Assembly: GCA_038125285.1 (NCBI GenBank)
Contig: JAYPDO010000008.1
Coordinates: 1-51,595, forward strand
Reading direction: 5' to 3'
From: Opitutia bacterium
GTDB taxonomy: Bacteria > Verrucomicrobiota > Verrucomicrobiia > Opitutales > JABJCN01
DNA: 51,595 nt
Shown here: in pieces, positions 1,682 through 32,586 of the stretch
How positions within the stretch are numbered: position 1 is the stretch's first letter
How the letters are laid out: each line of letters begins with the position of its first letter
Notes under the pieces: generated by a model
What the model was told of the DNA's origin: nothing
Databases searched by the model: none
What the model saw: the letters and a program-made list of their open reading frames with translations, nothing else
Position numbers and translations under genes: made by a program

Positions 1682-4600
1682 TCATGGTGCGGTGATACGG
1701 AGGCGGAGGAAAAGGGAAGTTCGCATACCGGCGATTTGTTTGCCCTGGATAGTTGTGGTGGTGTTGCCGTCTACGGTTTGGGTTGATAAAGTTTGGGTTT
1801 GGCCGGTTTGCCAGGCCTTGAGGTCGAAAGAAGATTCGGGGACGAAGTCCAAGTAGGTTGCGGATTCTGGCGATGTCCATGTTAGCTGGATGTAGCCTTC
1901 AGGGGATATTGTGGCTTGGGGGAGGTTTTTGGAGTAAGGATCCATGGGGTCGGCTCCGAAGGCAAATTCCAGAAGGTTTGGTAGGCCATCGTGGTCGGGG
2001 TCATCCAGGTAGGATTGGTCGAGGGAGGCGAAATGTGAGTTTTCCCAGTCATCTGGAAGTCCGTCGGAATCGTTGTCGTTGCCCTCGTAGGGTTCGCCAT
2101 CCCCCGGTGTTCCCCCGGTCACTGTACTGGCGTGCCAATTTGTGGCGATGGCAGGATCACGGGATGTCCTGAGCACGAGGGACTTCCCCCCTTTTGCGGC
2201 AGCTTGTGGCCAGGGTGCTTGGTTGTCGTATTTGAAATCCAGGAGGATGGAGCCGTCCGGCCCGGTAAGGCGGAGGTTTTCCCCTGCGTTGTTGAGTTTG
2301 CCTGCATATTGGCCTGCGATGTTGGCCGTGCTTCCGTGACGGAGTTCGAAGGCGGAAAGGTTGGACGCGAGAATCAAACGGGCACCAGGGTCGAGCACCA
2401 AGCCGTTTGGGAAGGGGAAGTCGATGCCGTCGGTAAAACGAAGGCCGTCTAGGTGAAGGGATTGGTGTTGGCTGGTGTTTTTGAGTTCGATGAACTCGAA
2501 GTCGCTGGCATCGAAACCTTGGTTAGTCTCTGCCTGGGTTGGTACTTTAGGGGCATAGTGGATCTCTGTGATGGCCAAGTTGGCCGGTGTCGGGATGGCT
2601 GGGTCGACGAGGAAGGTGGCTTGGTCGATAGCAGACCATTCGTTGCCAGATTTAGCGCGGGCGCTGACTTGGATGCTCGCGCCTTGGAGTGTGAATGCTT
2701 GGGTGTAGCGGCGGGCAGAGATGTCGAGGCCTCCTCCGGGGGAACGGGGGTCCTTGCCGTCCAAGGTGTAGTAGATGTCCCCGGTTTGCGAGGAGAGGCT
2801 CAGGGAATAACCAATCGGGACTTCACCTCCGCGTTGGGAGAAAGTAGGTGGGTCCAGGGTAGGGTAGGCCCCGGTAGCCCTTAGTTGTTGGATCACGACA
2901 TCCCTCCGGTTGGGAAAGTAGTTTTGGAGGAGGTTGTCCCGTTCGGCGACCCAGTCCTCGGAGGTGTAGGGTTGCGCCCTCTGGTTATCTCCCCATCGGG
3001 CGGATTCCGCGATGATGGCGCGTTCGATTTGGGCGGTTTTGTAGGCATAGTAGGCCGAGGACTTTTCAGGGGAGAGGACGCCTCCGTTGAAGAGGTGCTT
3101 GTAGGTGAGGTCGGCGAAGATGGCCCGGTAGTCGGGATGGGCCTTGAGTTGGTGGTGGATGCGGGTTGGCCCGCCGAGGTTGTCCCGGGTAGTGGCGATT
3201 TGGTTCAGCTCCTCCATGATGTGCTCGGCGTCCCAATGATGGTACTGCCATTTGCGTTCTGGGTCGGTGCGGTGGGTGGAGGCGTACCAGTTTTGGTGTC
3301 CCCAATCCGTGTTCCCAAGGTAGAAGTTCAGGAGCATGTAGTTAATGAATTGCCCGAGGTCCAGCATGGAGAGGACGGCATCGTAATTGGCTTGGATGGA
3401 GAGGTCTTGGTTGGCAGCGGAAACGAGGGCGAGATAGGAGTCGTTTGTCCCATGGACGACTGTGCTGGTTCGGTGTTTCATCACGTCGTAGTCGTCCGGG
3501 GATCCTCCCCTGTATTGGCGGACAAAGTTTTCGTCGGGCCGCTCGTGGAGGGTATGGAGACCCCAATAGAGGCCGTCGATGTAGAGGTGGATGTTGTAGC
3601 CGTGGGGGGAGTGCCCACCGAGTTGGCGATGGAGGTCGGATACGTATTGGTCTCGCAGATATTGGGCGCGCTGGCGCTGGAGGGTAGGGCTGGAGCTGCC
3701 TCCGTAAGACCAGACGTTGTTGAGGTGGGCATCGACGACGAGGGTATCAAATTCCTGGGCCGCACTTTCTCCGAAGACAGGGAATTCGAGCTTTGGCGGG
3801 CCGTATTCGGATGTGAACTTTAGTCGTAGGGAGAGTTTGTCCGTCTTCCAGCGGTTGACCGAGCTGCCGCCGACGACTTGGACGGATGCGTCGATTTGGA
3901 AACCGTCCTTGCCGTCTGGGAGGATGAGTTCCGCGGAGACAGGTTTTTCCACGCTTTCCCCCTTTGGGTAAATGCCTTGGGTCGCGTCGAAAAAGTCGTC
4001 CCGGTCGAGGACGAGGGAAAGGGTTGGCACGGATTGGAGGTCGTCCTCGATGTGGGTGCGCCAACGGGGGTCATCGACAATTTCCGGATCCATCGCGTAG
4101 TCGGCGGTGTGGCCGTTCCATGTGGAAGGGAATCCTGGCGGGACTATGGGTTGGCGGACGATATCCGCAGGGAAGAGGTAGGTCTGTGTATCGACATTGG
4201 TAGGAACGTAACCTGGCTTTGTGGCAATGGCGCGGAGGGTTGTGGTCGTGTCGATCCGAATGGGTTTTGTGTAAAGGGTACCATTTTGGTCTGAGGGGAG
4301 GGAACCGTCCGTCGTGTAATGGAAGGTCGCCTGGTCGGTCTTTGTCCCGATGACCAGGTCAAAGGGCTGGCTGAAGAAACCTCGTTTGTGGCTGAACTTG
4401 GTGTCCTGGACAATCCCAGCAACGCCGTCGCCGTTGGCTTCTCCTGGGGTAGGGACATCGAAAAAGCGGGGCTTTCCGGTGTTGTTGGCCAATCCGTAGG
4501 AAAATCCCTCCCTTTGAGTAGGGTAATTGTGAAACATTTGCACCATGTGGCCGTTTGGGTCAGTGAGGGAGAGGAACCCTCCTTCCTGGGATGACAGCTT

Positions 4601-7600
4601 GAAGGGCGCATGGAGTTCCACTTGGGGCGACGGGGATTTAGCGGATGCAAACACGACGAGGTAGCTTCCGGGGGCAAGTGATGTGCCGGGAGGGAAGATC
4701 CAGCGTGACGGTTCGTCTGGATCGTCAGTCAATGCCCATCCGGTGAGGTCTGCCGTGGAACCACCGGGGTTGTGGAGTTCGATCCAATCGGTGAAGTTTC
4801 CTTCGGCATCGGGGTAAACGTCCCGGTTTAATGCCATGAATTCCGTGACCAGGATGGGCGAGGAGGGCACTCCCAGTATTTCGTCCGTCCCAGGCGTGCC
4901 ACCAGCCACCAATGAGGCTTTCCAGGAGGACGGGCTTGAGTGGTCCGTTTCTGGCGAAAGCGGGGCAAGCACCATCGAATGCCCGGCATTGGCTGGCCAT
5001 GGCGGGTTGTTGCTATATTCCATCTCATGGATGGCAATCCCTGCGCCCAGGGACAACTTGATACGTTCCCCTGCATTGTCGAGTTTTCCTTTGAACTGGC
5101 CTGCTACAGGAAGCCCTGGGCCGTACCGGGATTCGAAGGCGGCTAGGTTGGCTACAAGCAGGGTAATTCCTCCCGAATCCAGCCTCGTTCCTTCTGGGAA
5201 ATTGAAATCGACCCCTTTGGTGAAGCGGACATCGGAGAGGTCAAGCGCGTTGCTTCCTACGTTTTTCAACTCGATGAACTCAAAGTCCGAAGTAGCGTAT
5301 CCCGCGAGCATTTCCTCCGTTGTGGCGGGTGCAGGATCGTAGTGGACCTCGGAAATGGCCAGGTTTTGCTGTAGGGTTGGCAGGGAAATGGGTGGCCCTG
5401 GAACGAATTGGACAGCCTTGGACCAATGGCTCCAACGTCCGGTATTGTCCTTGTGGCGGACACGCGCGCTGTATGTGCGGCCTTCAACCAAGCTACGGGC
5501 AGGGACACGGACAGTGCTGGAAAAGGTGGGTAATTCCCCAGAATCCCAGTCTGCATACCACTCCAGCACTGGCTTTGCCCCTCTTGTGAGTTCGGGGACT
5601 TCGATATCCCCGACTTCGGCGACCCTCCATTGCATGGCTGCCAAGGTGCCGTCGGCCTGGGGATCATTGAAGGCAGAGGACTGGAGGATTATCCCGTCCA
5701 GTGGTTGGCCGGAGTCCCCGACGTACGAGATCGCCGGGGTGAAGGGAATGTCCAGGTCGAGGGAAAGGTAGTCCAGATGTCCGGCACGCCCGCCGGAAGG
5801 CACATCGGGGCCGGTACTCCCTGTCCAACCCACGAAGGCAAATTCCTTCATGTCCTGCACTTTCCACTCCATTGTTCCATAGTCTTGGCTGCCTGCGCTG
5901 GCCGGGGCGTCTTTCCACCGGCCACGGTCAGCGGGGACAAAGTCCCTGATCTTGTCGGCAAGGCGGTCGACCATTGGGTTAATTACCCCTTCGGTCCAGA
6001 GGAGGTCGCGGAATTCGCGGATGAAGTTTTTGTAGTCCCGGACAAAATCCGGCTTGCCGCCGTTGGCCACGATGGCGGCGTTATGGGAATAATCGATCCC
6101 CGCCCCCCAGTTCGGCCCCCAGCTGGCGTCGGAATCCCATGGCAGGGTCCAAAGGCGGCCAAGGGGATTGCCCGGGTAGGGATTGAAGAACCAGGCGCGG
6201 TTCTTCGAATGGGAGTCTGCGGGCCGGACATCGTAATGACGGACGGCTTCGTTAATTGTGTGGTAGCGGAAGGACTTGTCGTAATTGACATGGATGTTGA
6301 GCCAGCTGTCGGAACGCTCGGGACGGAGATTGTTCCGGATGTTCTGGAAATCGGAGTCCCCGGTTGTGGATTTGGTGCCTTGGTGCCGCTTGACCAAGTT
6401 TCCGTCGAAGACCTGGTCCTTCAACTTGTAGAGGTTGCCGTCGGGCATGCGATGGGTTTTCAGGAAAGTGCCGTCGTAGTTTTCAAACACGAGTTGGAAT
6501 CCCTGGAAATCGCCGTTGTATTGGTCGGGCTGTTCTTCTGCGGTTTTGACGACCCTGAAATGGAACCACCACGTATGCGGGGCGGGGACGTCCACCATGT
6601 TCCAAAGCAGGGAGTTCATGGTCTCGGTGATGCCGAAGTTCCCGACCCCCTTGTTGTCTGACATTTTGCCAGTGTTGATGGTCCTGACCTTGTTGGGGAA
6701 GAGGTTCCCGTTGATGTCGCGGGGATGGAAGAGGTGGCCATGGTTGAAGCGGAACCGCATGCTGCGTTTGCCATTGGTGCCAGTCCTTTGGCTATAGCGG
6801 TCGTTGGCCTGCCGGAGCCGGTATTGGATGTGGTCATAGACGACGCCTTCGTAAACGAACGTGCCGAACCAATGGAACTCGCTCCGGGCGTCCTTATTCG
6901 TTTTCGGGATGCGGTCAGCTGGGTTGTAGCCGTAACACATGGCGTAGGCAGCAGGATCGGTGATGAGTTGGTAAACCGGGAGGCTCGTCATGACTTGGCG
7001 CGGATAGGTGTGCCCGGCGCCATCGGGATGGACGGAGTTTTGTGAGGCCACGTATTCTGGGACTCCATTGTACACGAAGTAGGCGAAGTTCAGTGAGGGG
7101 TCGTCCTGTTGTGGTGCGCGGGCCGCTTCCCCGTTTTTGTCCGTCGCGAAGATCCTGTAGCGCACGAGGGTACGGTTCGGTTGGTTGGGTAGTCTCGCTG
7201 TGTAGATGGACTCGCCTTGGGCAAAGTCGCGAGCCATTGGTACGATTTGCCAGTTAGCTGGGTCTTCGAAAGAGGGGTTGGCAGCGTGCGGATCCAGGGG
7301 GGCATTAAGGATTTCGGAAAGAGCCTTGGGTTGGTAGGCACTAAAATAGGAACCAGGCGGAACCACTTGATAGTGGAGTTCTACTGACTGGACAAGGTCG
7401 GTGTCAGAAACCTTGGCTTGGACAACCGGTTGTTCGAAATCGCGAGGTTGCTGTGGGGAATGGGATACCTTCCGGATTTGGGGTGGCGCATCGGCGGAAT
7501 AAACCGAGTTTTGGGCCGCAGGGGTAGGGGAGGACAAGCAAGGGCGCCAACTCCCGCCCAGCCCGTTGTCCAGGCCAGGGTTGATTAGTTCGAGGGAAGG

Positions 7601-8047
7601 CCCCTGGCCTCCAGGTGTGACCGGCCAGGGGAACTCGGATTTGTAGTCAACCTCGTCCACCTTGTTGCCTTCCTTATCCCTTAACGTGAGGTTTTCGCCT
7701 TCGTTCGCCAGGCTTCCTGACTGGAATAGCCCGAACGGGTCTGCCCGGTAGTTTGCCCGGTAGTGGGCCTTGTTTTCAGCAATGGCCAAGTACCCCGCAG
7801 CAGCGATCGAAGATCCTTCAGGAAAGGTATAGGAGATGCCCGAAGAGAAATACCACCCGGAAAGGCTGATGTCGGAGCCACTGGGGTTATGGATCTCTAC
7901 AAATTCAGTCAGCGAGGAAGGTGAATCGGGGTCAAAGTGGATTTCGTTGATGACTACTTGGGCAGGCGCGGGGACAGTGGCCAGGATGCCTGCCAACAAG
8001 GCAACACAACGGGTCAAAACATTTAAAATCGGGCAAATTCTACGCAT
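1682..8047 (-). CDS. giant secreted lamin-tail-domain (LTD) / CotH kinase-like multidomain protein (2,121 aa from internal ATG)
   Basis: Four LTD-like modules: VVINEIHFDPD..FVEIHNPSGSDISLSGWYF; AISEVHYDP..FEFIELKNVGSNALDLSDVRF; ILVTEFMALN..WIELHNPGGSTADLTGWAL; AITEIHYAP..FEFIELKNTSQHQSLHLDGLRF. Two CotH-like cores: KRSMRFRFNHG; VPTLSLVLDRDDFFD..GIYPKG..KLSLRLKF..YGPPKLEFPVF. Chitobiase-C-like motifs: FHYTTDGSLPS, IYYTLDGKDPRS. Asp-rich tail: NDNDSDGLPDDWE...DDPDHDGLPNLLEF. I set the start to ATG 8045-8047, which gives the signal peptide MRRICPILNVLTRCVALLAGILATVPAPAQ. Confidence 0.9.
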   Translation of the reverse strand: MRRICPILNVLTRCVALLAGILATVPAPAQVVINEIHFDPDSPSSLTEFVEIHNPSGSDISLSGWYFSSGISYTFPEGSSIAAAGYLAIAENKAHYRANYRADPFGLFQSGSLANEGENLTLRDKEGNKVDEVDYKSEFPWPVTPGGQGPSLELINPGLDNGLGGSWRPCLSSPTPAAQNSVYSADAPPQIRKVSHSPQQPRDFEQPVVQAKVSDTDLVQSVELHYQVVPPGSYFSAYQPKALSEILNAPLDPHAANPSFEDPANWQIVPMARDFAQGESIYTARLPNQPNRTLVRYRIFATDKNGEAARAPQQDDPSLNFAYFVYNGVPEYVASQNSVHPDGAGHTYPRQVMTSLPVYQLITDPAAYAMCYGYNPADRIPKTNKDARSEFHWFGTFVYEGVVYDHIQYRLRQANDRYSQRTGTNGKRSMRFRFNHGHLFHPRDINGNLFPNKVRTINTGKMSDNKGVGNFGITETMNSLLWNMVDVPAPHTWWFHFRVVKTAEEQPDQYNGDFQGFQLVFENYDGTFLKTHRMPDGNLYKLKDQVFDGNLVKRHQGTKSTTGDSDFQNIRNNLRPERSDSWLNIHVNYDKSFRYHTINEAVRHYDVRPADSHSKNRAWFFNPYPGNPLGRLWTLPWDSDASWGPNWGAGIDYSHNAAIVANGGKPDFVRDYKNFIREFRDLLWTEGVINPMVDRLADKIRDFVPADRGRWKDAPASAGSQDYGTMEWKVQDMKEFAFVGWTGSTGPDVPSGGRAGHLDYLSLDLDIPFTPAISYVGDSGQPLDGIILQSSAFNDPQADGTLAAMQWRVAEVGDIEVPELTRGAKPVLEWYADWDSGELPTFSSTVRVPARSLVEGRTYSARVRHKDNTGRWSHWSKAVQFVPGPPISLPTLQQNLAISEVHYDPAPATTEEMLAGYATSDFEFIELKNVGSNALDLSDVRFTKGVDFNFPEGTRLDSGGITLLVANLAAFESRYGPGLPVAGQFKGKLDNAGERIKLSLGAGIAIHEMEYSNNPPWPANAGHSMVLAPLSPETDHSSPSSWKASLVAGGTPGTDEILGVPSSPILVTEFMALNRDVYPDAEGNFTDWIELHNPGGSTADLTGWALTDDPDEPSRWIFPPGTSLAPGSYLVVFASAKSPSPQVELHAPFKLSSQEGGFLSLTDPNGHMVQMFHNYPTQREGFSYGLANNTGKPRFFDVPTPGEANGDGVAGIVQDTKFSHKRGFFSQPFDLVIGTKTDQATFHYTTDGSLPSDQNGTLYTKPIRIDTTTTLRAIATKPGYVPTNVDTQTYLFPADIVRQPIVPPGFPSTWNGHTADYAMDPEIVDDPRWRTHIEDDLQSVPTLSLVLDRDDFFDATQGIYPKGESVEKPVSAELILPDGKDGFQIDASVQVVGGSSVNRWKTDKLSLRLKFTSEYGPPKLEFPVFGESAAQEFDTLVVDAHLNNVWSYGGSSSPTLQRQRAQYLRDQYVSDLHRQLGGHSPHGYNIHLYIDGLYWGLHTLHERPDENFVRQYRGGSPDDYDVMKHRTSTVVHGTNDSYLALVSAANQDLSIQANYDAVLSMLDLGQFINYMLLNFYLGNTDWGHQNWYASTHRTDPERKWQYHHWDAEHIMEELNQIATTRDNLGGPTRIHHQLKAHPDYRAIFADLTYKHLFNGGVLSPEKSSAYYAYKTAQIERAIIAESARWGDNQRAQPYTSEDWVAERDNLLQNYFPNRRDVVIQQLRATGAYPTLDPPTFSQRGGEVPIGYSLSLSSQTGDIYYTLDGKDPRSPGGGLDISARRYTQAFTLQGASIQVSARAKSGNEWSAIDQATFLVDPAIPTPANLAITEIHYAPKVPTQAETNQGFDASDFEFIELKNTSQHQSLHLDGLRFTDGIDFPFPNGLVLDPGARLILASNLSAFELRHGSTANIAGQYAGKLNNAGENLRLTGPDGSILLDFKYDNQAPWPQAAAKGGKSLVLRTSRDPAIATNWHASTVTGGTPGDGEPYEGNDNDSDGLPDDWENSHFASLDQSYLDDPDHDGLPNLLEFAFGADPMDPYSKNLPQATISPEGYIQLTWTSPESATYLDFVPESSFDLKAWQTGQTQTLSTQTVDGNTTTTIQGKQIAGMRTSLFLRLRITAP

Positions 8048-8155
8048 TCCCGGCCTTCGGCTATAAAAGGGTGTGCGAGAACTTACGCCCGCGCCAATGA
8101 AGCGCAAGCTGGAATCCATACACTGTGGCGGGGACAACGCTGTCCGGCTTGCCCC

Positions 8156-10444
8156 TTAATCCAGAGGGGCAGGCTCGTAGTCGGAGGGGATTACCCAACC
8201 GGTACCCATCTTTTCCCCAGACATGTACTTTTCGTAGAAATCGTTCCAATTCCCGACGAAGGGGAATTCTTCGAATACATGGCCTTTCCCCTCCATCCGG
8301 GCGTCCCCTTGGGCCTTCAGTTCTGCCTCCAATTGTTGACGCAACTTTTGGGCTTGGGGGGCATGGGTTGGATTTCCAGCCAAGTTTTCTACGCAGTCCG
8401 GGTCGCACTTGGTGTTGAAAAGTTCCTCCCCCGGCCTTTTTCCGAAGTTCATTTGCCAGAAACTGGGCTCCCCGTCCCTCCGTTGTTGGAGGATCAAGGA
8501 TTTTGTGGGGCCAGCGTCGCAGTTCAAGTATCCAGTCTCCGGATTGCCGATTGGCCAGCGTGAGGGTTCGTAGTTCCGTAGGTAAAGCCATTGCCCGTCC
8601 ATGATCCCCCGGATGGGGTAACCCCAGTTGTGCGGACGCCCGACATCGTGCCTCTCCTTGCCGACCAGGACATGGTCACGGGAAGGGATGAGGTGGCCGG
8701 AGCCCGGGTGGTTGAAGATTTCTTGCAAAGATCGGCCCGAAACTGGCTCCATGATGCCACCTCCAGGAGTGACCCCGGCAACGCCGAGGAAGGTTGGGGC
8801 CAAGTCTACGAAACTTACAAAGTCCTCCACCTTGCGCCCATTGCCTTTGATCCCCCCTGGCCACATGATTGCCAAGGGGATGTGGTTGGAGTACTCATAG
8901 GCTTGCCCTTTGCAACGGGGGAAAGGCATTCCGTGGTCGGAGGTGGCGACAACCAAAGTGTTGGCAAGCAGGCCAGCCTGCTCCAACTGGTCCAAGATTT
9001 GTCCAAGGTGGTTGTCAAAATGCTCCACTTCGAATGCATAATCTAGCATGTCGTTGCGGACTGTCCCATTGTCCGGCCAGAAGGATGGGACGTGCCCGAT
9101 ATCGGATGGTTTCTTCCCATGCTTTGCGCCGACTCCGGCTTCATATCCCCTGTGGGGCTCCGTAGCACCATACCAAAAGCACCATGGTTCACCTCCCTTT
9201 TCCGCTTTCATGAATTCAGCAAAATTTCCCGCATAATCATTGTTGCTGATAGCCTTGGCGGGAGGTGCTTTTTTCTTCGATTGGAATGGCCTGCCGGTGA
9301 TCAACCTTTTGTTGCCGGAAGCATCATTGGCAATCCCTGGCGCCCAGCCTTTACCCGTGTAGCCGGTGAAGTATCCCGCGGCCTCCAGTTGCTCCATGAA
9401 ACTTCCGTACTTTGGGGGGAAGAAGTTCATGTGGTTGGCCGCCTCCCCGAGTTGCCAGGAATAACGGCCTGTTAAAATCGCCGCCCTGGACGGGGCACAT
9501 TTTGCGTTCGGGGTGTAGGCACGGGTGAACAGGATCCCGTCCTTGGCGACCCTGTCAAAAGCGGGTGTATTTACCCACTTGCAACCGTACGCACTTGCAT
9601 GGCCGAAGGACCAGTCGTCCGCAATGGCGAAAAGGATGTTGGGGCGTGGCTTCGATACAGCGGACTGGAGCCCTTTCATTGCCTCCGCATAACGCCGGCC
9701 AAGTTCCCTGGCGCTTTCCGCGCTGAAATGTACCTTGTCGCCTTTGTCCCCCAGACCCTCCGCACTGGCGAAGGCAGTGTTGGCTACTTTCAGGGGTAAT
9801 TCCCTGTGGGCTTTGTCGACCATTGCCTTGGGTTCCGGCCATTCACTGAAGATCCCCATTTGCCCGGCCACGAAGGGTAGCCCTGGGGCTCCGAATTCCT
9901 TACGGAACCTAGCTACCACATCATGCAGGCGGGCCTCATATAATCCAGCTTTGGCGGTATTTGAATCGGATTCCCCCTGGTGCCAAATAATTCCTTTCAA
10001 CGTGCCTTTCCCTAGGGCCACTTTCGCACGGGCTAGGGTATCGTCCCATGGATGGCCTTTGGTCTGGCCGTGGTATCCGCCAGGAACCCATGTCTCGATG
10101 GGCGAGCCTCCATGGGCACAGGGCACCAAGCCAATGACCACTTCCGGTCCCGCCGCCTTCAGCATGCCGAGGCCGAAGGACTTGCCTGGGCCGACCCCGG
10201 CGCTGGGTTTGTCAAAATGAAGCGGGTCCACTGCGGGTACCCATCCATTGGCTTTGTCCAGCATGAACAGGCGGGGATCGACAATCTTGTCCTTCTCCTC
10301 GATCTTCCCCCGTCCAGCCATGTTCGACTGCCCGGCCAGGATGTATATGTGGAAGTTTTCCTTCGGGATTTCTGGGAGTTGGCCGTAGGAGATACCGGCA
10401 AAAATGGCTGGGACAAGGATGGATAATCGGTTTCGCATGGTCAT
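8156..10444 (-). CDS. fusion protein: SASA/sialate-O-acetylesterase-like domain + formylglycine-type sulfatase domain
   Basis: The N-terminal half has [13 protein letters not shown] and IIWHQGESD (SASA/DUF303-type esterase motifs). The C-terminal half has [11 protein letters not shown]...[18 protein letters not shown] (sulfatase C-x-P-x-R) and ATSDHG. The start was trimmed to M10/M12 (10444/10438), giving the leader [21 protein letters not shown]. Confidence 0.9.
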
Positions 10445-10519
10445 TCGGTGTTTCGGTACAAAAGGGTACAATTGACTGGTCGGGAAGTTTTCAATCGCGC
10501 CGGGATCTGGACGCTGGCT

Positions 10520-11161
10520 TCATACTTCCAGGACTTCATCCCAATCCAGTCCATAATCTTCGGATAAGGTGGACACCAGCATCCCCGCGCTCCGTTCCTT
10601 GCAGGTGTTTTGCAACATCCAAATGGCCATTTTCGTGTTCTCTGGATCCAGGTGGCTGAAGGGCTCGTCCAGCAAGAGGAATTGGAAAGGCTGGAGCAAT
10701 GCCCGGAGGATTGCGAAGCGTTGTTGCTGGCCGTAGGATAGCTTGCCGCATGGATTATCCAAGTAGGGATGGACTCCCAGTCCCTGGGCTTTCGATTCCA
10801 TGTCGACCGGGTCCGTGGGTACATCTTGCAAGGCGCTTTTGAGCTCCAGGTTTTGCCGTGCCGTGAGTTGGGGCAAGAGCCTCAGGTCTTGGAATACGAT
10901 CCCGAAAGGTCCGCTCCGGAGGGTTGCCCAGTCCTGCGGCATAAAATCACGCCCATCCTTGCCATCGACCGTGAACCGGCCGGTATAGTTTTTCCTGATC
11001 CCGCAAAGGATATGCAGGAACGTACTTTTCCCCCGGCCTGATGTCCCCTTGAGCAGGTAGTTTTTTTTTGTGTCGATGACCAGGTTGTCTCTCCAGACGG
11101 TACCTTCCACTGTGTTCAATGGCAACCCTTCGGGACGCAGGGAGTGGGCGTGGATTTCCAT
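10520..11161 (-). CDS. stand-alone ABC-type ATP-binding protein (single NBD, FtsE/LolD size) with non-canonical motifs
   Basis: Walker A is GTSGRGKST, the Q-loop is VFQD, the signature is LSYGQQQR and Walker B is LLLDEPFSHLD. The H-loop position reads VSTLSED. The gene starts 15 nt after the upstream YwqK-type gene ends. Confidence 0.85.
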   Translation of the reverse strand: MEIHAHSLRPEGLPLNTVEGTVWRDNLVIDTKKNYLLKGTSGRGKSTFLHILCGIRKNYTGRFTVDGKDGRDFMPQDWATLRSGPFGIVFQDLRLLPQLTARQNLELKSALQDVPTDPVDMESKAQGLGVHPYLDNPCGKLSYGQQQRFAILRALLQPFQFLLLDEPFSHLDPENTKMAIWMLQNTCKERSAGMLVSTLSEDYGLDWDEVLEV

Positions 11162-24679: not shown

Positions 24680-27496
24680 TTACTTCCTAGACCACTTCGT
24701 CCGGGCGCGGAGCCCGTCTTGCTCGAAAGTGAGGCCGAAGGAGGCGTGTTGGAGGCCGTTAAAAAAGGAAGGCGCCTCGCAGGGCATCTTGGGTTTGGAA
24801 GGATGCCCGAACACGGTCGAGACATAGGAGCCTGCTGCTTCGTCCCAGACATATTCCCCGCCCCCAGGGCATTCCAGTCTGGTATGCCAGTTGGCCAGAT
24901 GGTATTCCCCTGCGTCTTCGATACCCAGGTTCCTCCTCCATTCGTTGAGGATTTGCAGGTTGTTCCAAGAGCGGGATTGAAGCGAGTTGAGCATTTGCTC
25001 TCCGGCCAAGTTCTGGATTTGGGGGATGGCTTGGCCATTGATTTGCACACCCATGCTTTCCCCTGCCCAATGATGGCTTTCCGGCACTTCGCCTGGTGCC
25101 TCCATGGATTTCTGGATGACGTCTTCCCGTAGGGATAGGGTCAGCAGGGTCGGTTCGACACGGTAGTACAGCGCGATTTCCTTCCAACCGGAATCCCCCT
25201 CCATCTTTTTCTTCGTTGTCTCGGTCAGGCCGACCCTGACATAAGTCTGGTCATTGTGGGTGCGGTTGTCCCATGCCAACATGCCGGGGGAGGTCTGGTC
25301 GAGGAATGCCCGGAAGGTTCCCAGGAAGGCCGTCATGACAAACGGGTTTTTGACATCCAACTTGGCCAGAACCGGGAGCCGGTGGATGTTTTGTTCGACG
25401 AAGTTTTCCGGGTCTCTCCCCCCGGCCACCTCAACGGCTAGGTCCTTCCAAAAAGGGGCGTCCATTAACTGGATGGAGGCATGCTTCCCAAGCCAACTCA
25501 AGGCATTGACCCCCAGGGTCGGGCTCGTTCGGGATGCAAACGTGCCTACCCGGCGCATGTCCGGACCTTGCGTGTCCAGGGCGATGATGGCGTGGAGGAG
25601 GGAGTCGGGGGACGGATTGGCCGCGTCGCTAGCGAAACGTACATTACCCGCGACGTCCCTGATCTCGTTGTACTCGCTTCCCTCGATTAGGGGGAGCACG
25701 GTGATGTCCACTTCGGAATCTCTCTCCCCGATGGAGATTGTCCCCCCGATGGGGTCGAAAAAGTTGCGCCAGCGGGATTGGTAGCGGTTGCGGAAGTTGT
25801 TGTAGGCTCGGTGTTCCCTCGGGGTGACCAGGTCGATTTCCAGTTCCGAGATAGGGGTCAGGAATGCCAAATTCCCATAGGTCGAAGATTGGGGGCCGGC
25901 TTCCAGCATCGTCACTTCGCCGAGCCAATCAGGTATCTCGCTTTTGCAAATTTTGAAATCCTCCGGTCCAGCAATTTTGCGGGCTTGGAGTTCTGCCAAG
26001 ATGGCCGCAGCCTGGGTTCGCCTGGAATTGCCAATCCTCCATTGAGGACTACACCAACGGCGGATGGCAGCATCGGTGACCAGGAAAAAGGGCTTTAGGT
26101 TGCCTTCGTAGCGTTGCCGGAACCAAGTGTACTCGGGGAGGGAACTGATCGCCTTCGATCCCTCCAGGCCAAGGATTACGCCCAGGATTTTCTTCAATTG
26201 GCCTTTGGAGTTAGATACCACGACAGTTTTCCCGTGCATCGCCAGGAAGGAGCGGGTCGAGCCATCTTCGGTTTCAATTCCTTGGAAGGATAATCCATGG
26301 AGTTCCCCTTTCGTCGCTTTGGCAGGGGTCGTAAAGCCTGCCGCCTTCATGCGCAGCGCGAGGAGGGTGTGGAGTGCCTTCGGGTCTTTGGCTTGGAGGA
26401 GGATGGTTACGTCCGTCCCTGTACGGAAATTGGGGTCCGAGCCTGTGACCGCCACTGCTTCCACCAACTTCGGGCCAAACTTCCGTACCGCCTCGTCCAG
26501 AGGCAGCAGGAGTTGGTCTTCGTAACGTTCAAAAGTCTGGGCATTTTCCGAACGGTTTTCAACGAGCCTTTGCAGGGGCGTCCCTTGGGCGAGGGAATTG
26601 TCTACCAGCCCCACCAGTTGGGCAAAACTTTGGAAATGGATGAAGTATTGGTCGTGCGGGACTGCATTGGCCAAGGGGAGGGGAGCCACCCCCAGGTTTG
26701 CATCAATTCGGTTTTCCCAGTCCATTTCGGCAATGGTGATCCCCGGTATGGTCTTTGCTTCCACGCTCCTCACATCGTCCCCATCATCCTTCTTGCCTCC
26801 TTCTCGGATCCGCAGGTCTCGGTCGAGTTGCAAGTTTTCGCTGACTGCCCGGCCGCCGGAAACGAGGTTGTAGGTGTTGTCCAGGTTCCCCCGGTTCCAG
26901 TTCCGTGAGGCATTGGCATTGAGGGGCAGGTTGTAGTCGTTCCAGTCGAGAACCTTCTCCAGTTCTTCCCTGGTCACCTCGATTTGGTGCCGGTACCAAG
27001 CCGATCCGGGGACACCAAGGTTTTGTAACCTTTGGTAGTGAGCGGCTTTGGTCTGGAAAAAGTGGGCCTTCGCCTCTTTCTGCCTCACCGGGACGGAGGT
27101 GAGTTGGAAGGTGTAGGCATCCATCCCCGTCCAGTCCTGGTTTGGCAAGTAGACCTTTCCGGACGGGGTGGCCGAGGAATCCGCCTCCGCACAGATCCGG
27201 ATGGAGGACAACTGGTTGCCTATGGACCTGCGGGGATCCATGCCCGAGCGTTCCCTGGCCAGGAAGATGGTTTGTCCTTCCGACACAACTACATAAGGGA
27301 ACATCGAGTCGGCCAACCTGTTCCTCGTGCGCCAGTTTGACTTGTTGAACTTTTCCGCGGCCGGCCCGGCCTTGGGGAACTCGCTCCCTTCCGTCAGTTG
27401 CACTTTGTCCAGGGTCGTGGAGTAATAGAGCGTTTTTCCTTCCGCAAGGACCGAGGAGATGGAGAAGGTGAAGAGTATGGGTAACCAGGTTTTCAT
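24680..27496 (-). CDS. large secreted hypothetical protein (938 aa), no recognisable domain
   Basis: Long uninterrupted ORF. The internal ATG 27494-27496 gives the signal peptide MKTWLPILFTFSISSVLAEG. Composition is protein-like throughout, and I recognise no family motif. Confidence 0.8.
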   Translation of the reverse strand: MKTWLPILFTFSISSVLAEGKTLYYSTTLDKVQLTEGSEFPKAGPAAEKFNKSNWRTRNRLADSMFPYVVVSEGQTIFLARERSGMDPRRSIGNQLSSIRICAEADSSATPSGKVYLPNQDWTGMDAYTFQLTSVPVRQKEAKAHFFQTKAAHYQRLQNLGVPGSAWYRHQIEVTREELEKVLDWNDYNLPLNANASRNWNRGNLDNTYNLVSGGRAVSENLQLDRDLRIREGGKKDDGDDVRSVEAKTIPGITIAEMDWENRIDANLGVAPLPLANAVPHDQYFIHFQSFAQLVGLVDNSLAQGTPLQRLVENRSENAQTFERYEDQLLLPLDEAVRKFGPKLVEAVAVTGSDPNFRTGTDVTILLQAKDPKALHTLLALRMKAAGFTTPAKATKGELHGLSFQGIETEDGSTRSFLAMHGKTVVVSNSKGQLKKILGVILGLEGSKAISSLPEYTWFRQRYEGNLKPFFLVTDAAIRRWCSPQWRIGNSRRTQAAAILAELQARKIAGPEDFKICKSEIPDWLGEVTMLEAGPQSSTYGNLAFLTPISELEIDLVTPREHRAYNNFRNRYQSRWRNFFDPIGGTISIGERDSEVDITVLPLIEGSEYNEIRDVAGNVRFASDAANPSPDSLLHAIIALDTQGPDMRRVGTFASRTSPTLGVNALSWLGKHASIQLMDAPFWKDLAVEVAGGRDPENFVEQNIHRLPVLAKLDVKNPFVMTAFLGTFRAFLDQTSPGMLAWDNRTHNDQTYVRVGLTETTKKKMEGDSGWKEIALYYRVEPTLLTLSLREDVIQKSMEAPGEVPESHHWAGESMGVQINGQAIPQIQNLAGEQMLNSLQSRSWNNLQILNEWRRNLGIEDAGEYHLANWHTRLECPGGGEYVWDEAAGSYVSTVFGHPSKPKMPCEAPSFFNGLQHASFGLTFEQDGLRARTKWSRK

Positions 27497-27877
27497 GGGC
27501 TTTCTAGAGATAGCGTGGATTGATTGTGGATTGGAAGTCCGTCCCTTATGCCAATCCCATGCCAATCTTTTGTGTCTGGCAAATCCCTTTCCAGGAGGGG
27601 GGGATCCAGTGTCCCTGTGATTTTCGATTGAGCTAAAAATGTACCTTTTGTGGCCAATAATGTCCACGATGGCCGATTTCCATGGTTTACTTCTTTAGTG
27701 AACCAGGGTAGTTTGTTTCCGTCTCTGACTGGGATCAGTTCCGGCACTTGCGGTGTCGTGCCAATCGGCGCAGGAAACGGCGGTTGGTGTTTCCGAAAAG
27801 GGCGCTGGCTTCAATGGTTTGCTCCGTTCCATTTTCGGTGAGGATTAGTCCTTCATTGCCAATTTTAATCCATGAAC

Positions 27878-28099
27878 CTACGGCGATGGTGTCTCTTCAT
27901 TTGGTTCCAGCCCAGAGGCAAATTCAATCAAGTTTCCATCCCCGTCGCTATATGCATCATTTAGCTTCATAAGTGTTCTCGGAAGTACCGATGGATTTAC
28001 AGCAAATCCAACATCGCCCGAAACATCGAAAGGCCGCCTGAACTCCGTGCCATTTGAGATAGCCCAGTTTACCAATTTTACTCGGCTAAATGGGAGCGG
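27878..28099 (-). pseudogene. possible C-terminal remnant of a VOC/glyoxalase-family gene
   Basis: The open frame has no ATG (only a TTG). It reads ...FRRPFDVSGDVGFAVNPSVLPRTLMKLNDAYSDGDGNLIEFASG. The ending resembles the VOC C-terminal beta-strands (..f.DPDGN.iEl). It is bounded upstream by TAG at 28100-28102. Confidence 0.3.
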
Positions 28100-28206
28100 C
28101 TAATCCTCATTTTTCCATAAAATATTGACGGGAGAAAGTTTGTGGCAGCATTGCTCCACGAGTCGTAAGACCTATCCTTTGTTTGCTAGGTTGAAATGTG
28201 GATGGG

Positions 28207-29079
28207 TCACTTGAGGGTCTTAATGAGTTTACCGTCTTCGTAGCGTTTGAGGGAAACCAGTTCGCCTTCCTGAGACCATTCGTAGCTGTATCCCCAGAGT
28301 TTGCCGTTGCGCCATCCGTTTTCTATCCATTTTTTGCCGGGAGCGTACCATGCGGTGATGCGTTTGGGCTCCGACCCGATGATTTCACCTACTCGGTATG
28401 GGGTGCCGTTTTGGTACCAGCCTTGGATTTTCCCGGAGGCGATACCGTGTTCGTATGAGGACTGGAGGGCTTTTTGGCCGGATTGGAACCATTCAGTGGC
28501 CACCCCGTGGACGACGCCTTCTTTGTAGGGGTATTCGCTCTTTTTACTGCCGTCGGGATACCATCCGGTTGCGGTCCCTGTGGCTTGGTTGCCGTCCATC
28601 GCAACTTTGAAGCTGGGTTGCCCGTTGGGGTGGAATTGGGTGAGGGTGCCTTCGGTGGAACCGTTGACGTAGGTGACTTCGAAGCTACGGGTGCCGTCCG
28701 GGTGGGTGCGGTAGGCCAACCCGGTGAACGGTTCCATGTCCCCGACCAGGTAGACTTTGTCGGTCTTTCGAAGCTTAAATTGGTCGATTTCATCGTAATG
28801 GACTTCGCGTAGTGGCTTGGCTGACCCTGGGGGCGGGGTAACCGGTGCGGGTAGTGGCGGTTGGAGGGCAGGGATGGAATCTTCCGATCTGGAAGAGGTT
28901 GCTGTAATTGCGATCGGGGGAACGATCGCAGGAGTTTGGGGCGAGGGTTGGTCCTGGGGTGGGGCAGGGGGCGAGGGCTTGTGGTAAGCGTGCTTGGTGG
29001 GCGCGGGTTCACAACCCCACATCCCGAGCAGGAGAGGGATGCAGGCCAGGAGGGTTTGTCGTAAGGTCTTTGGGGTCAT
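28207..29079 (-). CDS. YwqK-family (MORN-variant repeat) lipoprotein with Pro-rich linker
   Basis: Lipobox LLLGMWGC, then a Pro-rich segment (PSPPAPPQDQPSPQTPAIVPP...), then repeats FTGLAYRTHPDGTRSFEVTYVNGSTEGTLTQFHPNG...GWYPDGSKKSEYPYKEGVVHGVATEWFQSGQK. It starts 10 nt after the FtsX-like gene stop. Confidence 0.85.
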   Translation of the reverse strand: MTPKTLRQTLLACIPLLLGMWGCEPAPTKHAYHKPSPPAPPQDQPSPQTPAIVPPIAITATSSRSEDSIPALQPPLPAPVTPPPGSAKPLREVHYDEIDQFKLRKTDKVYLVGDMEPFTGLAYRTHPDGTRSFEVTYVNGSTEGTLTQFHPNGQPSFKVAMDGNQATGTATGWYPDGSKKSEYPYKEGVVHGVATEWFQSGQKALQSSYEHGIASGKIQGWYQNGTPYRVGEIIGSEPKRITAWYAPGKKWIENGWRNGKLWGYSYEWSQEGELVSLKRYEDGKLIKTLK

Positions 29080-29089
29080 CGGCGTCGTT

Positions 29090-30277
29090 TTAGGAACGGG
29101 CGAGTTTATAAAGTGTTGAACGTATGGAAATGGCCTGAGCCAAGGTTAATAGCAACACTGGGATGGATGCGTGTAAAAAAACTTGCGTCCAGGCGGGGGC
29201 TAGCAGGTCCAGTCCGAGGTGGCTGATGAGGCTTTCGCTGTATTTCAGGGCTCGGACGGACGCGAGGGTCGAGAGGGTGAGCAAGGTTGTGGAAATGGCG
29301 AGGAGGATCCGAAGGTAGTGCTGGAAGAGGGCGTTGGGAGGGTAGCCGATGGAGAGGAGGGTCTGGAGGTGGCTATTGGAGCGGTGGAGGATCATCTGGA
29401 AGCTCAACCAGTAGGCAAGAAAGGCGACCAAGAGGAGGGCTAGCCCTATGCTGCCGGTCGTGCCGAGGGCGGCTTTCAGGAGTTGATTGGCCTTGGATTC
29501 GGCGAGGAGTTCCCTGTTGGTCTCGTATTGATCGAGTTTTGCTGAAAGCTGCTGGCTTAGTGGGGTTTGCGCCTTGAGCAGCACCCTGTGGACTTCGTCC
29601 TTTGCTTTGGAGGCGGGTTGCAATGCGTTTGCCCAGTCGAGGAAGGATTTGGGGACGAGGATGGTGGTGATGCGGTCGCTGAAGGCCGAGATCCTGGCGT
29701 CGATTGGCAGGGGTTTCCCGTTCGGACCTGGGATGACCAAGGTGAGCGGGACTTTACCGACCGCTCCTTTGGAAACTTGGGGGTAACCGTTGGCGGGGGC
29801 GAACCCGAAGTTGTAGAGTTGGAGGAAGCTGTTGGGAAGGAGGGCTGGCAAACGGGGACTGCCGGGTTGCCAGTCCCAATTCTCCGGCGGGTTTTCCAGG
29901 AACCTGGGGGGGAGGGCTTCGAGGAAGAGTTCCGTCCGGTAGGCTTTGAACGCCCCGACTTTGAAAATGACTTCGGCTTGGAAGTTCGCGGTGGTGAAGG
30001 GCGTGATGTCTTCGACGCCCGGCGTGTCCCGTAATTCTTCGATCTCCTTTGTTTTGAAAAGGGGCTTGAACCCTGGGAGGTTGCTCATCAGGGAGACTTT
30101 GTGCGCCAGGGTGAGGTAGCGGGGCGGGAAGAGTTCGTCCTGTTTTGCGAGGTAAACCTGGAAGGATTTGTGGGTTTCCCATGCCAGCACTAGCAATGTG
30201 ACCCCAAAGAATGCGCCGGTACAAGCCAGTAGGACTTGCCAGAGAGGTTGGTTGCGCCATAGGACTCGGTATAGCAT
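29090..30277 (-). CDS. FtsX-like (MacB/LolCE-type) ABC permease-like membrane protein
   Basis: From ATG 30275-30277 (MLYRVLWRNQPLWQVLLACTGAFFGVTLLVLAW): one N-terminal TM, a ~250-aa extracytoplasmic domain, then three C-terminal TMs. An FtsX-type loop lies between them: LSFQMILHRSNSHLQTLLSIGYPPNALFQHYL (cf. eR.rEigiLkalGa....i). Confidence 0.75.
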   Translation of the reverse strand: MLYRVLWRNQPLWQVLLACTGAFFGVTLLVLAWETHKSFQVYLAKQDELFPPRYLTLAHKVSLMSNLPGFKPLFKTKEIEELRDTPGVEDITPFTTANFQAEVIFKVGAFKAYRTELFLEALPPRFLENPPENWDWQPGSPRLPALLPNSFLQLYNFGFAPANGYPQVSKGAVGKVPLTLVIPGPNGKPLPIDARISAFSDRITTILVPKSFLDWANALQPASKAKDEVHRVLLKAQTPLSQQLSAKLDQYETNRELLAESKANQLLKAALGTTGSIGLALLLVAFLAYWLSFQMILHRSNSHLQTLLSIGYPPNALFQHYLRILLAISTTLLTLSTLASVRALKYSESLISHLGLDLLAPAWTQVFLHASIPVLLLTLAQAISIRSTLYKLARS

Positions 30278-30552
30278 GGGGATCGATTTTGGTGGCAACC
30301 CCGCCCTTGTGCAACGGGAAAGAAGGGGTGCCATTGCGGCGGAGGTTTGGATCGAGTGGGAATATCGTCGCCTGGTTCGGTGACCGGACCAGGCTCTTAG
30401 CTTGAATGCTTGGATTTGGATCCAATTCTGTTGTAGCCCGCTATCTCTGTTTCCTACTGTTCAAGACAAGGTTCCAAGGGATCGCAGGGGATGCAAGTGG
30501 TCAGGTAAGGACGGGCTTGCCAGGTGGGGCCATTTTTGTTGAGCCGTAGCAG

Positions 30553-31254
30553 ATGGATTGGACAACGCAACGGAGGGTGGTCATCTCAGAGATCGCCGAA
30601 AAGATCCTCCGGATTAAGCTACCGCACCCGGTGCGGGTCGGGATTGACGGTGGTAGCGCGTCGGGAAAGACAGTGTTTGCCGACCAACTGGCAGAATTGG
30701 TTCGTGAGAAGGGCAGGGAAGTGATCCGGGCAGGAATCGACGGTTTTCACAACCCACCGGAAATCCGCCACCGCCAGGGTCCGTTGAGCGTGGATGGCTA
30801 TGTGGAGGATTCATTTGATTATCGGGGCGTACGGGAGCATGTCCTCAATCCATTGGGGAGAGGGGGGAGTCGGGAGTACCGGCACACGATCTTCGACCAT
30901 AAGGCCGGGAGGAGCGATTTTGCGGCCACTTTGGTTGCGTCGGATGACGCAGTCCTTATTTTCGAGGGGGTCATGCTTTTTAACCGGGAAATTGTGGAGG
31001 GGTTTGATTTCAAAGTCTCCATCGAGGTGCCGGAAGAGGTTTGCCTCGAACGGGCGAAGGTCCGTGACTTGGGGCATTTCGGCAGCATCGAAACCTTGCT
31101 GGAGAAATACCACTCGCGCTTCTTTCCCGGCCAAGCCTTGCACCGGGAGCGGCACCGCCCGTCCGAGGCCGCGGATGTCGTGGTTTGCAACAAAGACCAC
31201 CGGGCACCCGCGTTGAGGTGGAATTCCCGGCATCACCAAGCTCGACATACCTAA
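30553..31254 (+). CDS. uridine kinase / PRK-family P-loop kinase-like protein
   Basis: P-loop VGIDGGSASGKT near the N-terminus, a later DxxxIFEG-type block (DDAVLIFEGVMLF), and a size of ~230 aa. Confidence 0.7.
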   Translation: MDWTTQRRVVISEIAEKILRIKLPHPVRVGIDGGSASGKTVFADQLAELVREKGREVIRAGIDGFHNPPEIRHRQGPLSVDGYVEDSFDYRGVREHVLNPLGRGGSREYRHTIFDHKAGRSDFAATLVASDDAVLIFEGVMLFNREIVEGFDFKVSIEVPEEVCLERAKVRDLGHFGSIETLLEKYHSRFFPGQALHRERHRPSEAADVVVCNKDHRAPALRWNSRHHQARHT

Positions 31255-31278: not shown

Positions 31279-32586
31279 ATGAAACCCTGTCCCTTCCCGT
31301 TCTTCTGCCTCCTCCTTGTCCCTGCGCTCCTTCCTGCCGCACCCAACCTCAAGGACGTTCTTAACGACGATCATGCCCGCGGGGTCAACCACTGGATTTA
31401 CAACGATTTTGCGGAGGCCAAGGAAGCCGCAGCGCGTGAGAACAAGCCCATCTTTGTCACTTTCCGGTGTGTCCCTTGTAAGAATTGCAACGGGTTCGAT
31501 GCGGAAGTTACCAAGGGCAGCGAGGTCATCCGCGATTTGGCGGTCTCGAAATTCGTTCCCCTTCGGCAGGTAGAAATGAAAGGAGTCGACCTCTCCCAAT
31601 TCCAATTCGACTACGACCTGAATTGGGCGGCCATGTTCATCAATGCGGATGGCACGGTTTACGGGCGTTATGGGACGCAATCCTCTGAAGGGCCGGATGC
31701 TTATAATTCCATCGGTTCCCTGGAAAAGGCCATGCAAAGAGTGCTCCAACTCCACAAGGGGTATCCCGCCAACAAGGCTTATTTGAAAGACAAAGTTGGC
31801 AGGCCCAAGCCCTACAAAACTGCCTTAGAAATGCCTGGGCTCTCCGAAAAAGGGAAATATGCCGGGGCGACCGCTCGGAACAACTGCATCCACTGCCACA
31901 ACATCCATGACGCCGAAAGCGAGCATCTCAAGGCGACCGGGAACTTCACCAACGAAAGCCTATGGCGTTATCCCCTCCCCGACAATGTTGGGATCCAAAT
32001 CAACCCTGCGGACGGCCAGTTGGTGAAATCCATACAACCAGGGAGCCCGGCCGACCTCGCCGGGTTGAAGGCCAATGACCGGGTCGTCACTGTCAACGGG
32101 CAGGCCATCATCTCCATCGCTGACATCCAGTGGGTCTTCCACAACTTGCCAAATGATAGGGTGCCGATCCGTTTCGATGTGGTGAGGGACGGCCAAATGC
32201 AATCCCTTACGCTAACCACTGCCCTAGGATGGAAAAAGACGGACATCAGCTGGCGGGGTTCCATCTGGCACCTCTCCCCTAGGCTCCAAGTCTGGATGCC
32301 TGAAGCAATGGAGGACGAAAACCGCCGCATCGGCCTGCCCGAAGGGGAAACGGCGCTGAAGGTGAAATGGATCAACCGTGGGGGTCCCGGAGGCAAGTCT
32401 GCCTTCAATGCAGGATTGAGGGAAGGGGACTACATCATTAAACTTGCAGGCAAGCCTGTACCCCCGGATCCCCGGTTGTTCACTGTGGAGGTGAAACTCA
32501 ATTACAAACCTGGGGACAAAATGCCCGTCACCCTCTGGAGAAACGGCAAGACCTTCGACTTCGATTGGCCTTTGGTGGACGAATGA
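31279..32586 (+). CDS. secreted thioredoxin-fold (Thioredoxin_7-like) protein with two PDZ domains
   Basis: Signal peptide MKPCPFPFFCLLLVPALLPAAP. KPIFVTFRCVPCKNCNGFD is a C-x-x-C-x-x-C motif in a Trx-like context. PDZ-like segments: GIQINPADGQLVKSIQPGSPADLAGLKANDRVVTVNG and GKSAFNAGLREGDYIIKLAGKPV. Confidence 0.85.
   Translation: MKPCPFPFFCLLLVPALLPAAPNLKDVLNDDHARGVNHWIYNDFAEAKEAAARENKPIFVTFRCVPCKNCNGFDAEVTKGSEVIRDLAVSKFVPLRQVEMKGVDLSQFQFDYDLNWAAMFINADGTVYGRYGTQSSEGPDAYNSIGSLEKAMQRVLQLHKGYPANKAYLKDKVGRPKPYKTALEMPGLSEKGKYAGATARNNCIHCHNIHDAESEHLKATGNFTNESLWRYPLPDNVGIQINPADGQLVKSIQPGSPADLAGLKANDRVVTVNGQAIISIADIQWVFHNLPNDRVPIRFDVVRDGQMQSLTLTTALGWKKTDISWRGSIWHLSPRLQVWMPEAMEDENRRIGLPEGETALKVKWINRGGPGGKSAFNAGLREGDYIIKLAGKPVPPDPRLFTVEVKLNYKPGDKMPVTLWRNGKTFDFDWPLVDE

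Follow-up and report, generated by a model that had tools for sequence, protein, structure and literature searches.

The window, a 51,595-nt stretch of contig JAYPDO010000008.1 from an Opitutia bacterium of the order Opitutales (assembly GCA_038125285.1), encodes a putative type VII ATP-binding cassette (ABC) system in two parts. A permease gene and a gene for a separate small ATPase, or nucleotide-binding domain (NBD), lie about 17.9 kb apart, and each adjoins a gene for a protein with MORN_2 (YwqK-type) repeats. The four genes are as follows.

29090-30277, minus strand: type VII ABC permease, 395 aa, with a first transmembrane helix (TM1), a PCD-like outer domain (about residues 50-260) and TM2-4
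28207-29079, minus strand: MORN_2 (YwqK-type repeat) lipoprotein, 290 aa, MORN_2 39.2 bits
11177-12712, minus strand: secreted MORN-511, 511 aa, MORN_2 59.7 bits and 3keto-disac_hyd
10520-11161, minus strand: ATPase (NBD), very probable partner of the permease, 213 aa, ABC_tran 86 bits

The permease open reading frame (ORF) spans 29090-30334 on the minus strand, and its start was set at Met20 (30277) because the homologues are 395 aa long. The window protein scores 21.8 bits for the Pfam FtsX family (PF02687), under the cut-off of 25.5 bits, and no NCBIfam family matched it. Precomputed assignments place PF02687 on many of its homologues, along with PF28574 (Transporter_N), PF28560 (PCD-like) and PF28576 (Transporter_C). 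An AlphaFold2 model (pLDDT 80.2) has one transmembrane helix, an outer domain of ~200 aa and three further transmembrane helices (helices 12-45, 262-299, 314-353 and 363-394, with a mixed alpha/beta domain at 54-253), reproducing the topology proposed for this gene in an earlier reading of the window (the original prediction), which also placed the start at 30277. The top Foldseek match in the PDB is LolE (9rld_E, E 2.5e-12), with MacB at 2e-10 and LolC, BceB, HrtB, YbbP, YtrF and FtsX among the further matches, over ~400 aligned columns. Each of the 50 Foldseek matches listed is a type VII permease, a complex of one or a periplasmic domain of one. As modelled, the permease has the type VII ABC (MacB/LolC/FtsX) fold and topology. 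A profile search of 1.84 billion representatives gives a permease family of 1786 representatives at 50% identity, nearly all of ~395 aa, and by these sequences it is a distinct, medium-sized family.

The MORN_2 lipoprotein follows the permease after 10 nt (29080-29089), and MORN-511 ends 15 nt upstream of the NBD. Both adjacencies had been put forward in the original prediction, and both are borne out, the first by ORF coordinates and Pfam, the second likewise by its MORN_2 score. With a MORN_2 (PF07661) cut-off of 29.6 bits, both proteins are PF07661 members on their Pfam scores, and both begin with an export signal. The lipoprotein consists of a signal peptide with lipobox Cys23, a Pro-rich linker of ~70 aa and a MORN_2 domain of ~195 aa. 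In MORN-511 a signal peptide is followed by two MORN_2 domains, N- and C-terminal, on either side of a central DUF1080/3-keto-disaccharide-hydrolase-like beta-sandwich. The MORN domain of the lipoprotein and the N-terminal one of MORN-511 are homologous (hhalign probability 98.6) and paralogous. The central lectin-like beta-sandwich of MORN-511 suggests binding to a glycan or envelope polymer, going by its Pfam family alone. An NCBIfam scan matched MORN-511 weakly to a Leptospira adhesin model, and PDB sequence searches with either MORN protein returned nothing meaningful.

In the YwqJ-YwqK pair of B. subtilis, YwqK is a cytoplasmic protein encoded beside its LXG or polymorphic toxin. A role for the window proteins as YwqK-type antitoxins or immunity proteins was rejected, because both are exported and no toxin-like gene was called beside them. 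No NCBIfam antitoxin model matched either of them.

The ATPase belongs to a family in which Walker A, the Q-loop, the signature (LSxGQ) and the Walker B glutamate are all conserved. Its best PDB match is YtrE (E 7.5e-23), and Leu199 of the window NBD aligns with the H-loop His224 of YtrE. Across the window NBD and 176 family members (from the loci below plus P0149-P0268), the H-loop position is Leu in 170 of 177 and His in one, and the D-loop reads SHLD with an invariant His (177/177). The C-terminus lies only ~14 residues past Leu199. The H-loop histidine is normally required for hydrolysis in ABC ATPases, and the D-loop touches the active site of the opposite monomer. It is a reasonable hypothesis from these motifs that the D-loop histidine could replace that of the H-loop in trans, as a relocated catalytic histidine; alternatively, the NBD may be a slow or non-hydrolysing ATPase. 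Its homologues are named 'ABC-type lipoprotein export system ATPase subunit' by JGI, which is a generic COG name.

The original prediction held that this is the only small NBD in the window. That is sustained for the genes scanned, those up to 47164, among which the only other NBD found is a 507-aa tandem NBD of a sugar importer with its own binding protein and permease. The prediction further held that the two loci are halves of one type VII machine, each with a MORN_2 protein, and both synteny and conservation across ~11 lineages agree with it. In all, 106 related loci from genomes and metagenomes (labelled L001-L106) were collected and then searched with the window proteins, and the cross-genome scan alignment comprised 17 sequences minus three divergent ones. 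In 56 of the 73 non-Opitutales loci with sufficient upstream sequence, mostly from Bacteroidota, the gene immediately before the permease is an NBD orthologue (35-48% identity, 120-214 bits), and unrelated NBDs in the same loci score just 50-64 bits against the window NBD. A sister clade within the Opitutales has all the genes together, in the order MORN-511, NBD, kinase (opposite strand), permease, MORN lipoprotein, 940-aa protein (L003, L089/L096/L097, L098, L101 and L103; permease 47-53% identical to that of the window).

The window clade (L001, L002, L008/L091 and L102; 56-80% identity) has the kinase gene and no NBD in the 2-6 kb upstream of the permease. Since the sister clade is contiguous, the separation of NBD and permease in the window clade is, on gene order, a derived rearrangement. 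The permease also lacks an adjacent NBD in L016, L037, L049, L051, L054, L057, L070, L072, L077, L081-L083 and L085. These loci are mostly labelled Saprospiraceae, and their operon split looks like one independent of that in the Opitutales.

The permease might instead use an ATPase encoded outside the window, the NBD at 10.5 kb being no partner of it. The 18 kb between the two genes, their separate transcription units and a view limited to 51.6 kb of the genome would allow this. It is nevertheless very improbable, because the orthologues of the window NBD in ~60 loci and the sister clade lie upstream of the permease, and because the window NBD bears the family signature of an SHLD D-loop and an H-loop Leu. 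No permease gene adjoins the window NBD, and elsewhere an NBD with no permease nearby likewise keeps only its MORN partner (L104 and L105). On whether the permease pairs with a different NBD, the related loci are consistent: the permease family pairs with this NBD family. Given NBD-permease synteny in ~60 other loci, the gene order of the contiguous relatives and a shared best PDB sequence match (YtrEF), the permease very probably forms one type VII ABC system with the distant small NBD as its cognate half.

The pairing of each half with a MORN_2 protein is conserved as well. The 20 Opitutales-type loci represent ~11 lineages (at most 91% identity). In all 12 loci with 1 kb or more of sequence beyond the permease, the permease is followed immediately, on the same strand, by a lipoprotein orthologue; these loci cover 9/9 distinct lineages at 47-80% identity. 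All nine orthologues have the lipobox Cys, a Pro/Ser/Thr-rich linker of 70-150 aa and a C-terminal MORN domain of ~200 aa. Full-length orthologues of MORN-511 lie directly upstream of the NBD in L003, L089/L096/L097, L098, L101, L103, L104 and L105. In L104 and L105 the MORN-511-NBD pair is kept with no permease within the ~8 kb examined on each side, and the flanks of these two loci differ. Flanking genes vary among the lineages while the MORN pairs persist. The next gene called after the permease lies 7 nt away in L001, 15 nt away in L003 and 48 nt away in L002, and such short spacings suggest co-transcription.

Enrichment of MORN genes near ABC genes had been proposed as a check on the original prediction, and MORN homologues occur solely at these two positions in all flanking DNA of the related loci. 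On this count, as on that of a different NBD, the prediction was not refuted. Given this conservation across genomes, the pairing by gene order exceeds chance. Each half is, as judged from the loci compared, stably paired with a MORN_2 protein across ~11 Opitutales lineages, and both pairs have outlasted the locus split.

The Bacteroidota loci carry the same permease and NBD families in an operon of the order DUF4836-NBD-permease (L010-L087, e.g. L040:3958-5487 and L010:7721-9358), with 25-34% identity to the window permease and 35-48% to the window NBD. An exported DUF4836 protein of ~520 aa lies directly upstream of the NBD in 51 loci, mostly from Bacteroidota. This operon differs from the window in having no MORN gene and no kinase gene, and its NBD and permease genes are adjacent or overlapping. 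DUF4836 matches MORN-511 in position and roughly in size, with no detectable homology between the two, so the slot for an accessory exported protein is, by synteny, conserved while its occupant varies by phylum. Remote homology of DUF4836 to MORN-511, the lipoprotein or the 940-aa protein was rejected, with hhalign probabilities of 0.1-1.8% even with a 73-sequence profile (0.1 for MORN-511). A stretch of local likeness in the DUF4836 comparison (...GE.-S.A.TG... and ...VTNS... motifs) is a lead only. PDB sequence searches with DUF4836, as a single sequence and as a profile, gave nothing meaningful. The Bacteroidota operon neighbours are housekeeping genes (S20 (rpsT), RadC, HPPK, SppA and a DEAD helicase), which provide no functional clue.

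LolCDE/LolDF resembles the window system in several respects. Its permease, of ~400 aa, has four transmembrane helices, with ~200 aa of outer domain between the first two, and its ATPase (~220 aa) is a separate protein; LolE and LolC are the best structural matches of the window permease. LolCDE works by passing its cargo to a periplasmic partner via the outer domain. The window system differs from LolCDE in lacking a Pfam MacB_PCD match and the H-loop His, and the accessory genes of its family encode MORN_2 or DUF4836 proteins. Membership in LolCDE was rejected, as the LolD model TIGR02211 gives the window NBD 83.3 bits, far under its cut-off of 307.75, and no Lol permease model matched. No LolA-family gene was called in the annotated loci, but lolA need not be linked.

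FtsEX-EnvC, like the machine proposed here, transports no solute and works as a mechanotransducer on a protein partner in the periplasm. FtsX differs from the window permease in its length of ~300 aa and in having less of an outer domain, and it gives much weaker Foldseek matches (E 1e-4 to 1e-2). Membership in FtsEX was also rejected: the FtsE model TIGR02673 gives the window NBD 92.7 bits against a cut-off of 264.85, and no EnvC/M23 gene is among the called neighbours. There is no cell-division gene context at the locus.

YtrEF of B. subtilis (PDB 9o9x) is the closest solved sequence match for both halves. For the permease profile this match is to YtrF (E 1.2e-3) and covers the C-terminal FtsX region only, at low similarity. 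YtrEF differs in its Gram-positive source and in the canonical H-loop His224 that YtrE keeps. MacAB-TolC and YbbAP share a fold with the window permease (MacB and YbbP matches), and MacAB-TolC with the YbjP lipoprotein (PDB 9qgy) provides a precedent for a lipoprotein that binds a type VII pump. MacB differs in that its NBD is fused to the permease, whereas the window NBD is encoded by a separate gene. A MacAB-type efflux pump was rejected, as no membrane-fusion (HlyD-family) gene is present in any annotated related locus. A TolC gene was not found in the annotated related loci either, and the frequent neighbour clusters with Pfam annotation include nothing HlyD-like.

The original prediction considered the association of MORN_2 and type VII ABC genes to be undescribed. 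This stands insofar as no paper on MORN-ABC gene linkage was found. It has to be qualified by a precedent in F. nucleatum, in which two MORN/YwqK proteins are among 16 that were cross-linked to both FtsX and EnvC in a pull-down (PMC5915739). This co-purification is the sole experimental link between MORN_2 proteins and a type VII permease found in the literature. Literature searches for the permease family and for DUF4836 (PF16120) also found nothing, but their coverage was incomplete and is no proof of absence. As a matter of gene linkage, the MORN-ABC association is real, conserved and, in the literature searched, undescribed.

The best explanation overall, and a fairly likely one, is a split type VII ABC operon with two dedicated MORN_2 partners. 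A dimer of the 395-aa permease would have two copies of the 213-aa NBD beneath it. On binding ATP the NBD dimer would close, and the motion would be passed through the stalk helices TM1 and TM2 to the PCD-like outer domain, which would do mechanical work in the periplasm with no solute moved across the membrane. The mechanism proposed is the established working principle of MacB, LolCDE and FtsEX. The soluble MORN-beta-sandwich-MORN protein would be made together with the ATPase, and the MORN domain of the lipoprotein, on its flexible tether of 70-150 aa, together with the permease. As the best candidates for contact with the outer domain, both could dock on it or take cargo from it, and they would fill the place held by DUF4836 in Bacteroidota. 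That the MORN proteins act in the same pathway as the ABC machine appears likely from their conserved gene order. That they are direct partners of the outer domain is a more tentative proposal, which may well prove wrong; here we infer the contact, its direction (adaptor or cargo) and the substrate.

Several observations weigh against such dedicated partners. The window contains three MORN_2 genes among ~43 genes in 51.6 kb, so chance adjacency is possible within a single genome, and the third copy is unlinked to ABC genes. A MORN match is present in none of the 83 non-Opitutales loci, and two other Verrucomicrobia relatives (L050 and L106) have neither a MORN match nor a MORN_2 gene call. Other Verrucomicrobia relatives have the NBD-permease pair and no accessory gene. 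Judged by this distribution, the MORN association is confined to one Opitutales clade and is probably the result of a single maintained acquisition, not of repeated gain. All of this is compatible with a gene order that was inherited without functional coupling, in which the MORN_2 proteins are independent envelope or surface proteins of an adhesin-like or immunity-like kind; the weak Leptospira adhesin match of MORN-511 would fit as well. This explanation seems unlikely, since the flanks change while both pairs persist even past the locus split, the 7-48 nt spacings to the next called gene suggest co-transcription, and no MORN homologue is found elsewhere in the flanks of the related loci.

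Other points on the same side concern the machine itself. Even where relatives have the genes together, one on the opposite strand stands between NBD and permease, so these two are not on one transcript. With the H-loop His lacking, ordinary ATP turnover by the NBD is not certain from its motifs. The specificity of the F. nucleatum pull-down is low, given the cross-linking and the 16 shared proteins. The strongest conservation in the permease sits in the outer domain, in the motifs LYNFGFAP and AFSDRI, and these are common to lineages with and without MORN genes. Since MORN-less relatives have them too, the motifs point to a common substrate or mechanism rather than a MORN-specific docking site.

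Two further neighbours are as conserved as the MORN genes and were missing from the original prediction.

24680-27496, minus strand: secreted protein of 938 aa (the 940-aa protein of the gene order above) with no Pfam domain; its family has >500 members
30553-31254, plus strand: P-loop kinase of the PRK/uridine-kinase family, divergent from the permease

In every assessable Opitutales-type locus the kinase gene is the immediate upstream neighbour of the permease, on the opposite strand. An orthologue of the 938-aa protein follows the MORN lipoprotein in 11 of the 11 assessable Opitutales-type loci. Members occur in Verrucomicrobia, Planctomycetes and Lentisphaerae at 35-40% full-length identity; all carry the annotation 'hypothetical', and one homologue falls just below the DUF3352 threshold. 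A Puniceicoccaceae contig carries a member of it and no ABC genes. The AlphaFold2 model of the 938-aa protein (pLDDT 88.7) has a sole structural match, the T. pallidum lipoprotein TP0453 (E 1.6e-3, TM-score 0.47). An obligate subunit was rejected, since the protein is spread across the Planctomycetes-Verrucomicrobia-Chlamydiae (PVC) group and occurs where there are no ABC genes; a component of the system is possible from its position. In L090 (Pirellulaceae; 3580-5962 and 8001-10802) a homologue and an unrelated MacB_PCD/FtsX permease (526 aa) with its NBD are 2 kb apart. This proximity is a single case and could be a coincidence.

TP0453 is a membrane-inserting lipoprotein, and its match to this neighbour counts in favour of another explanation, a cargo role for the MORN proteins. 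The lipoprotein, and perhaps MORN-511, would be cargo, and the machine a dedicated Lol-like extractor of a lipoprotein or lipid from the inner membrane, with handover to a periplasmic carrier such as the TP0453-like 940-aa protein or DUF4836. The top structural matches of the permease, which are LolE and LolC bound to lipoprotein, are in line with this, as is a downstream gene that always encodes a lipoprotein with a conserved lipobox. A whole ABC machine for a single lipoprotein would be unusual, however, and the same outer-domain motifs are present in Bacteroidota and other Verrucomicrobia that lack the MORN lipoprotein. The distance from the LolD cut-off, the lack of any Lol permease match, the occurrence of the 940-aa protein where there are no ABC genes and the weakness of the TP0453 match also count against it, and it is quite improbable. 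Since the relatives work without them, the MORN proteins seem to us more likely to be adaptors or partners than cargo.

Type VII ABC systems (Lol, FtsEX, MacB, Bce and YbbAP) are central to envelope building, and each is defined by the periplasmic partner that it moves. The genes described here would represent a large unstudied type VII branch, with clear candidate partners that differ between phyla and an ATPase of unusual catalytic-site layout. Verrucomicrobia, Bacteroidota, Fusobacteria and Leptospira abound in MORN_2/YwqK proteins, for which hardly any function beyond toxin immunity has been assigned. A genetic link to an ABC machine would give some of them a concrete, testable role and offer a rationale for the unexplained F. 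nucleatum proteomic result. A broader and rather doubtful proposal is that of a relocated-histidine branch of type VII mechanotransducers (~1800 representatives at 50% identity; mainly Bacteroidota and Opitutales) that uses lineage-specific exported partners in a new envelope lipid or lipoprotein pathway. If this is true, the partners would be DUF4836 in Bacteroidota and the two MORN_2 proteins, possibly with the TP0453-like 940-aa protein, in Opitutales. FtsX-fold permeases would then have a general docking module in the MORN_2/YwqK repeat, and that would account for the F. nucleatum pull-down too.

Thioredoxin-like genes (DUF4369 and AhpC/TSA) lie just downstream of the permease in 14 Bacteroidota loci (L013, L030 and 12 others). 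The window encodes a secreted protein with thioredoxin-like and PDZ domains at 31279-32586 (plus strand), beside the kinase gene. This may be a recurring redox neighbour of the permease, or chance.

The gap between the lipoprotein and 938-aa genes (27497-28206) is 710 nt long in the window and ~140-160 nt in L003 and L089. It contains a 65-aa ORF (27878-28075, minus strand) that may be a gene remnant; its '...DGDGNLIEFASGLEPNE' tail resembles the C-terminal motif of a 2151-aa protein encoded elsewhere in the window (see below). Rfam scans of the whole window and of this gap gave no match, and promoter and terminator scans gave background levels only.

Two other genes near the NBD locus complete the set.

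902-1579, minus strand: third MORN_2 protein, 225 aa, MORN_2 36.4 bits, with no ABC gene adjacent
8156-10471, minus strand: fusion of SASA (sialate O-acetylesterase-like) and sulfatase domains, 771 aa

The third MORN_2 gene lies just downstream of the gene for the 2151-aa protein (1682-8137, minus strand), which is secreted and contains four lamin-tail domains, CotH kinase-like regions and Fn3-associated domains; this is a further MORN_2 pairing. The SASA-sulfatase gene follows the NBD on the same strand after 48 nt, a place taken by other genes in the relatives; here it may share a transcript with MORN-511 and the NBD.

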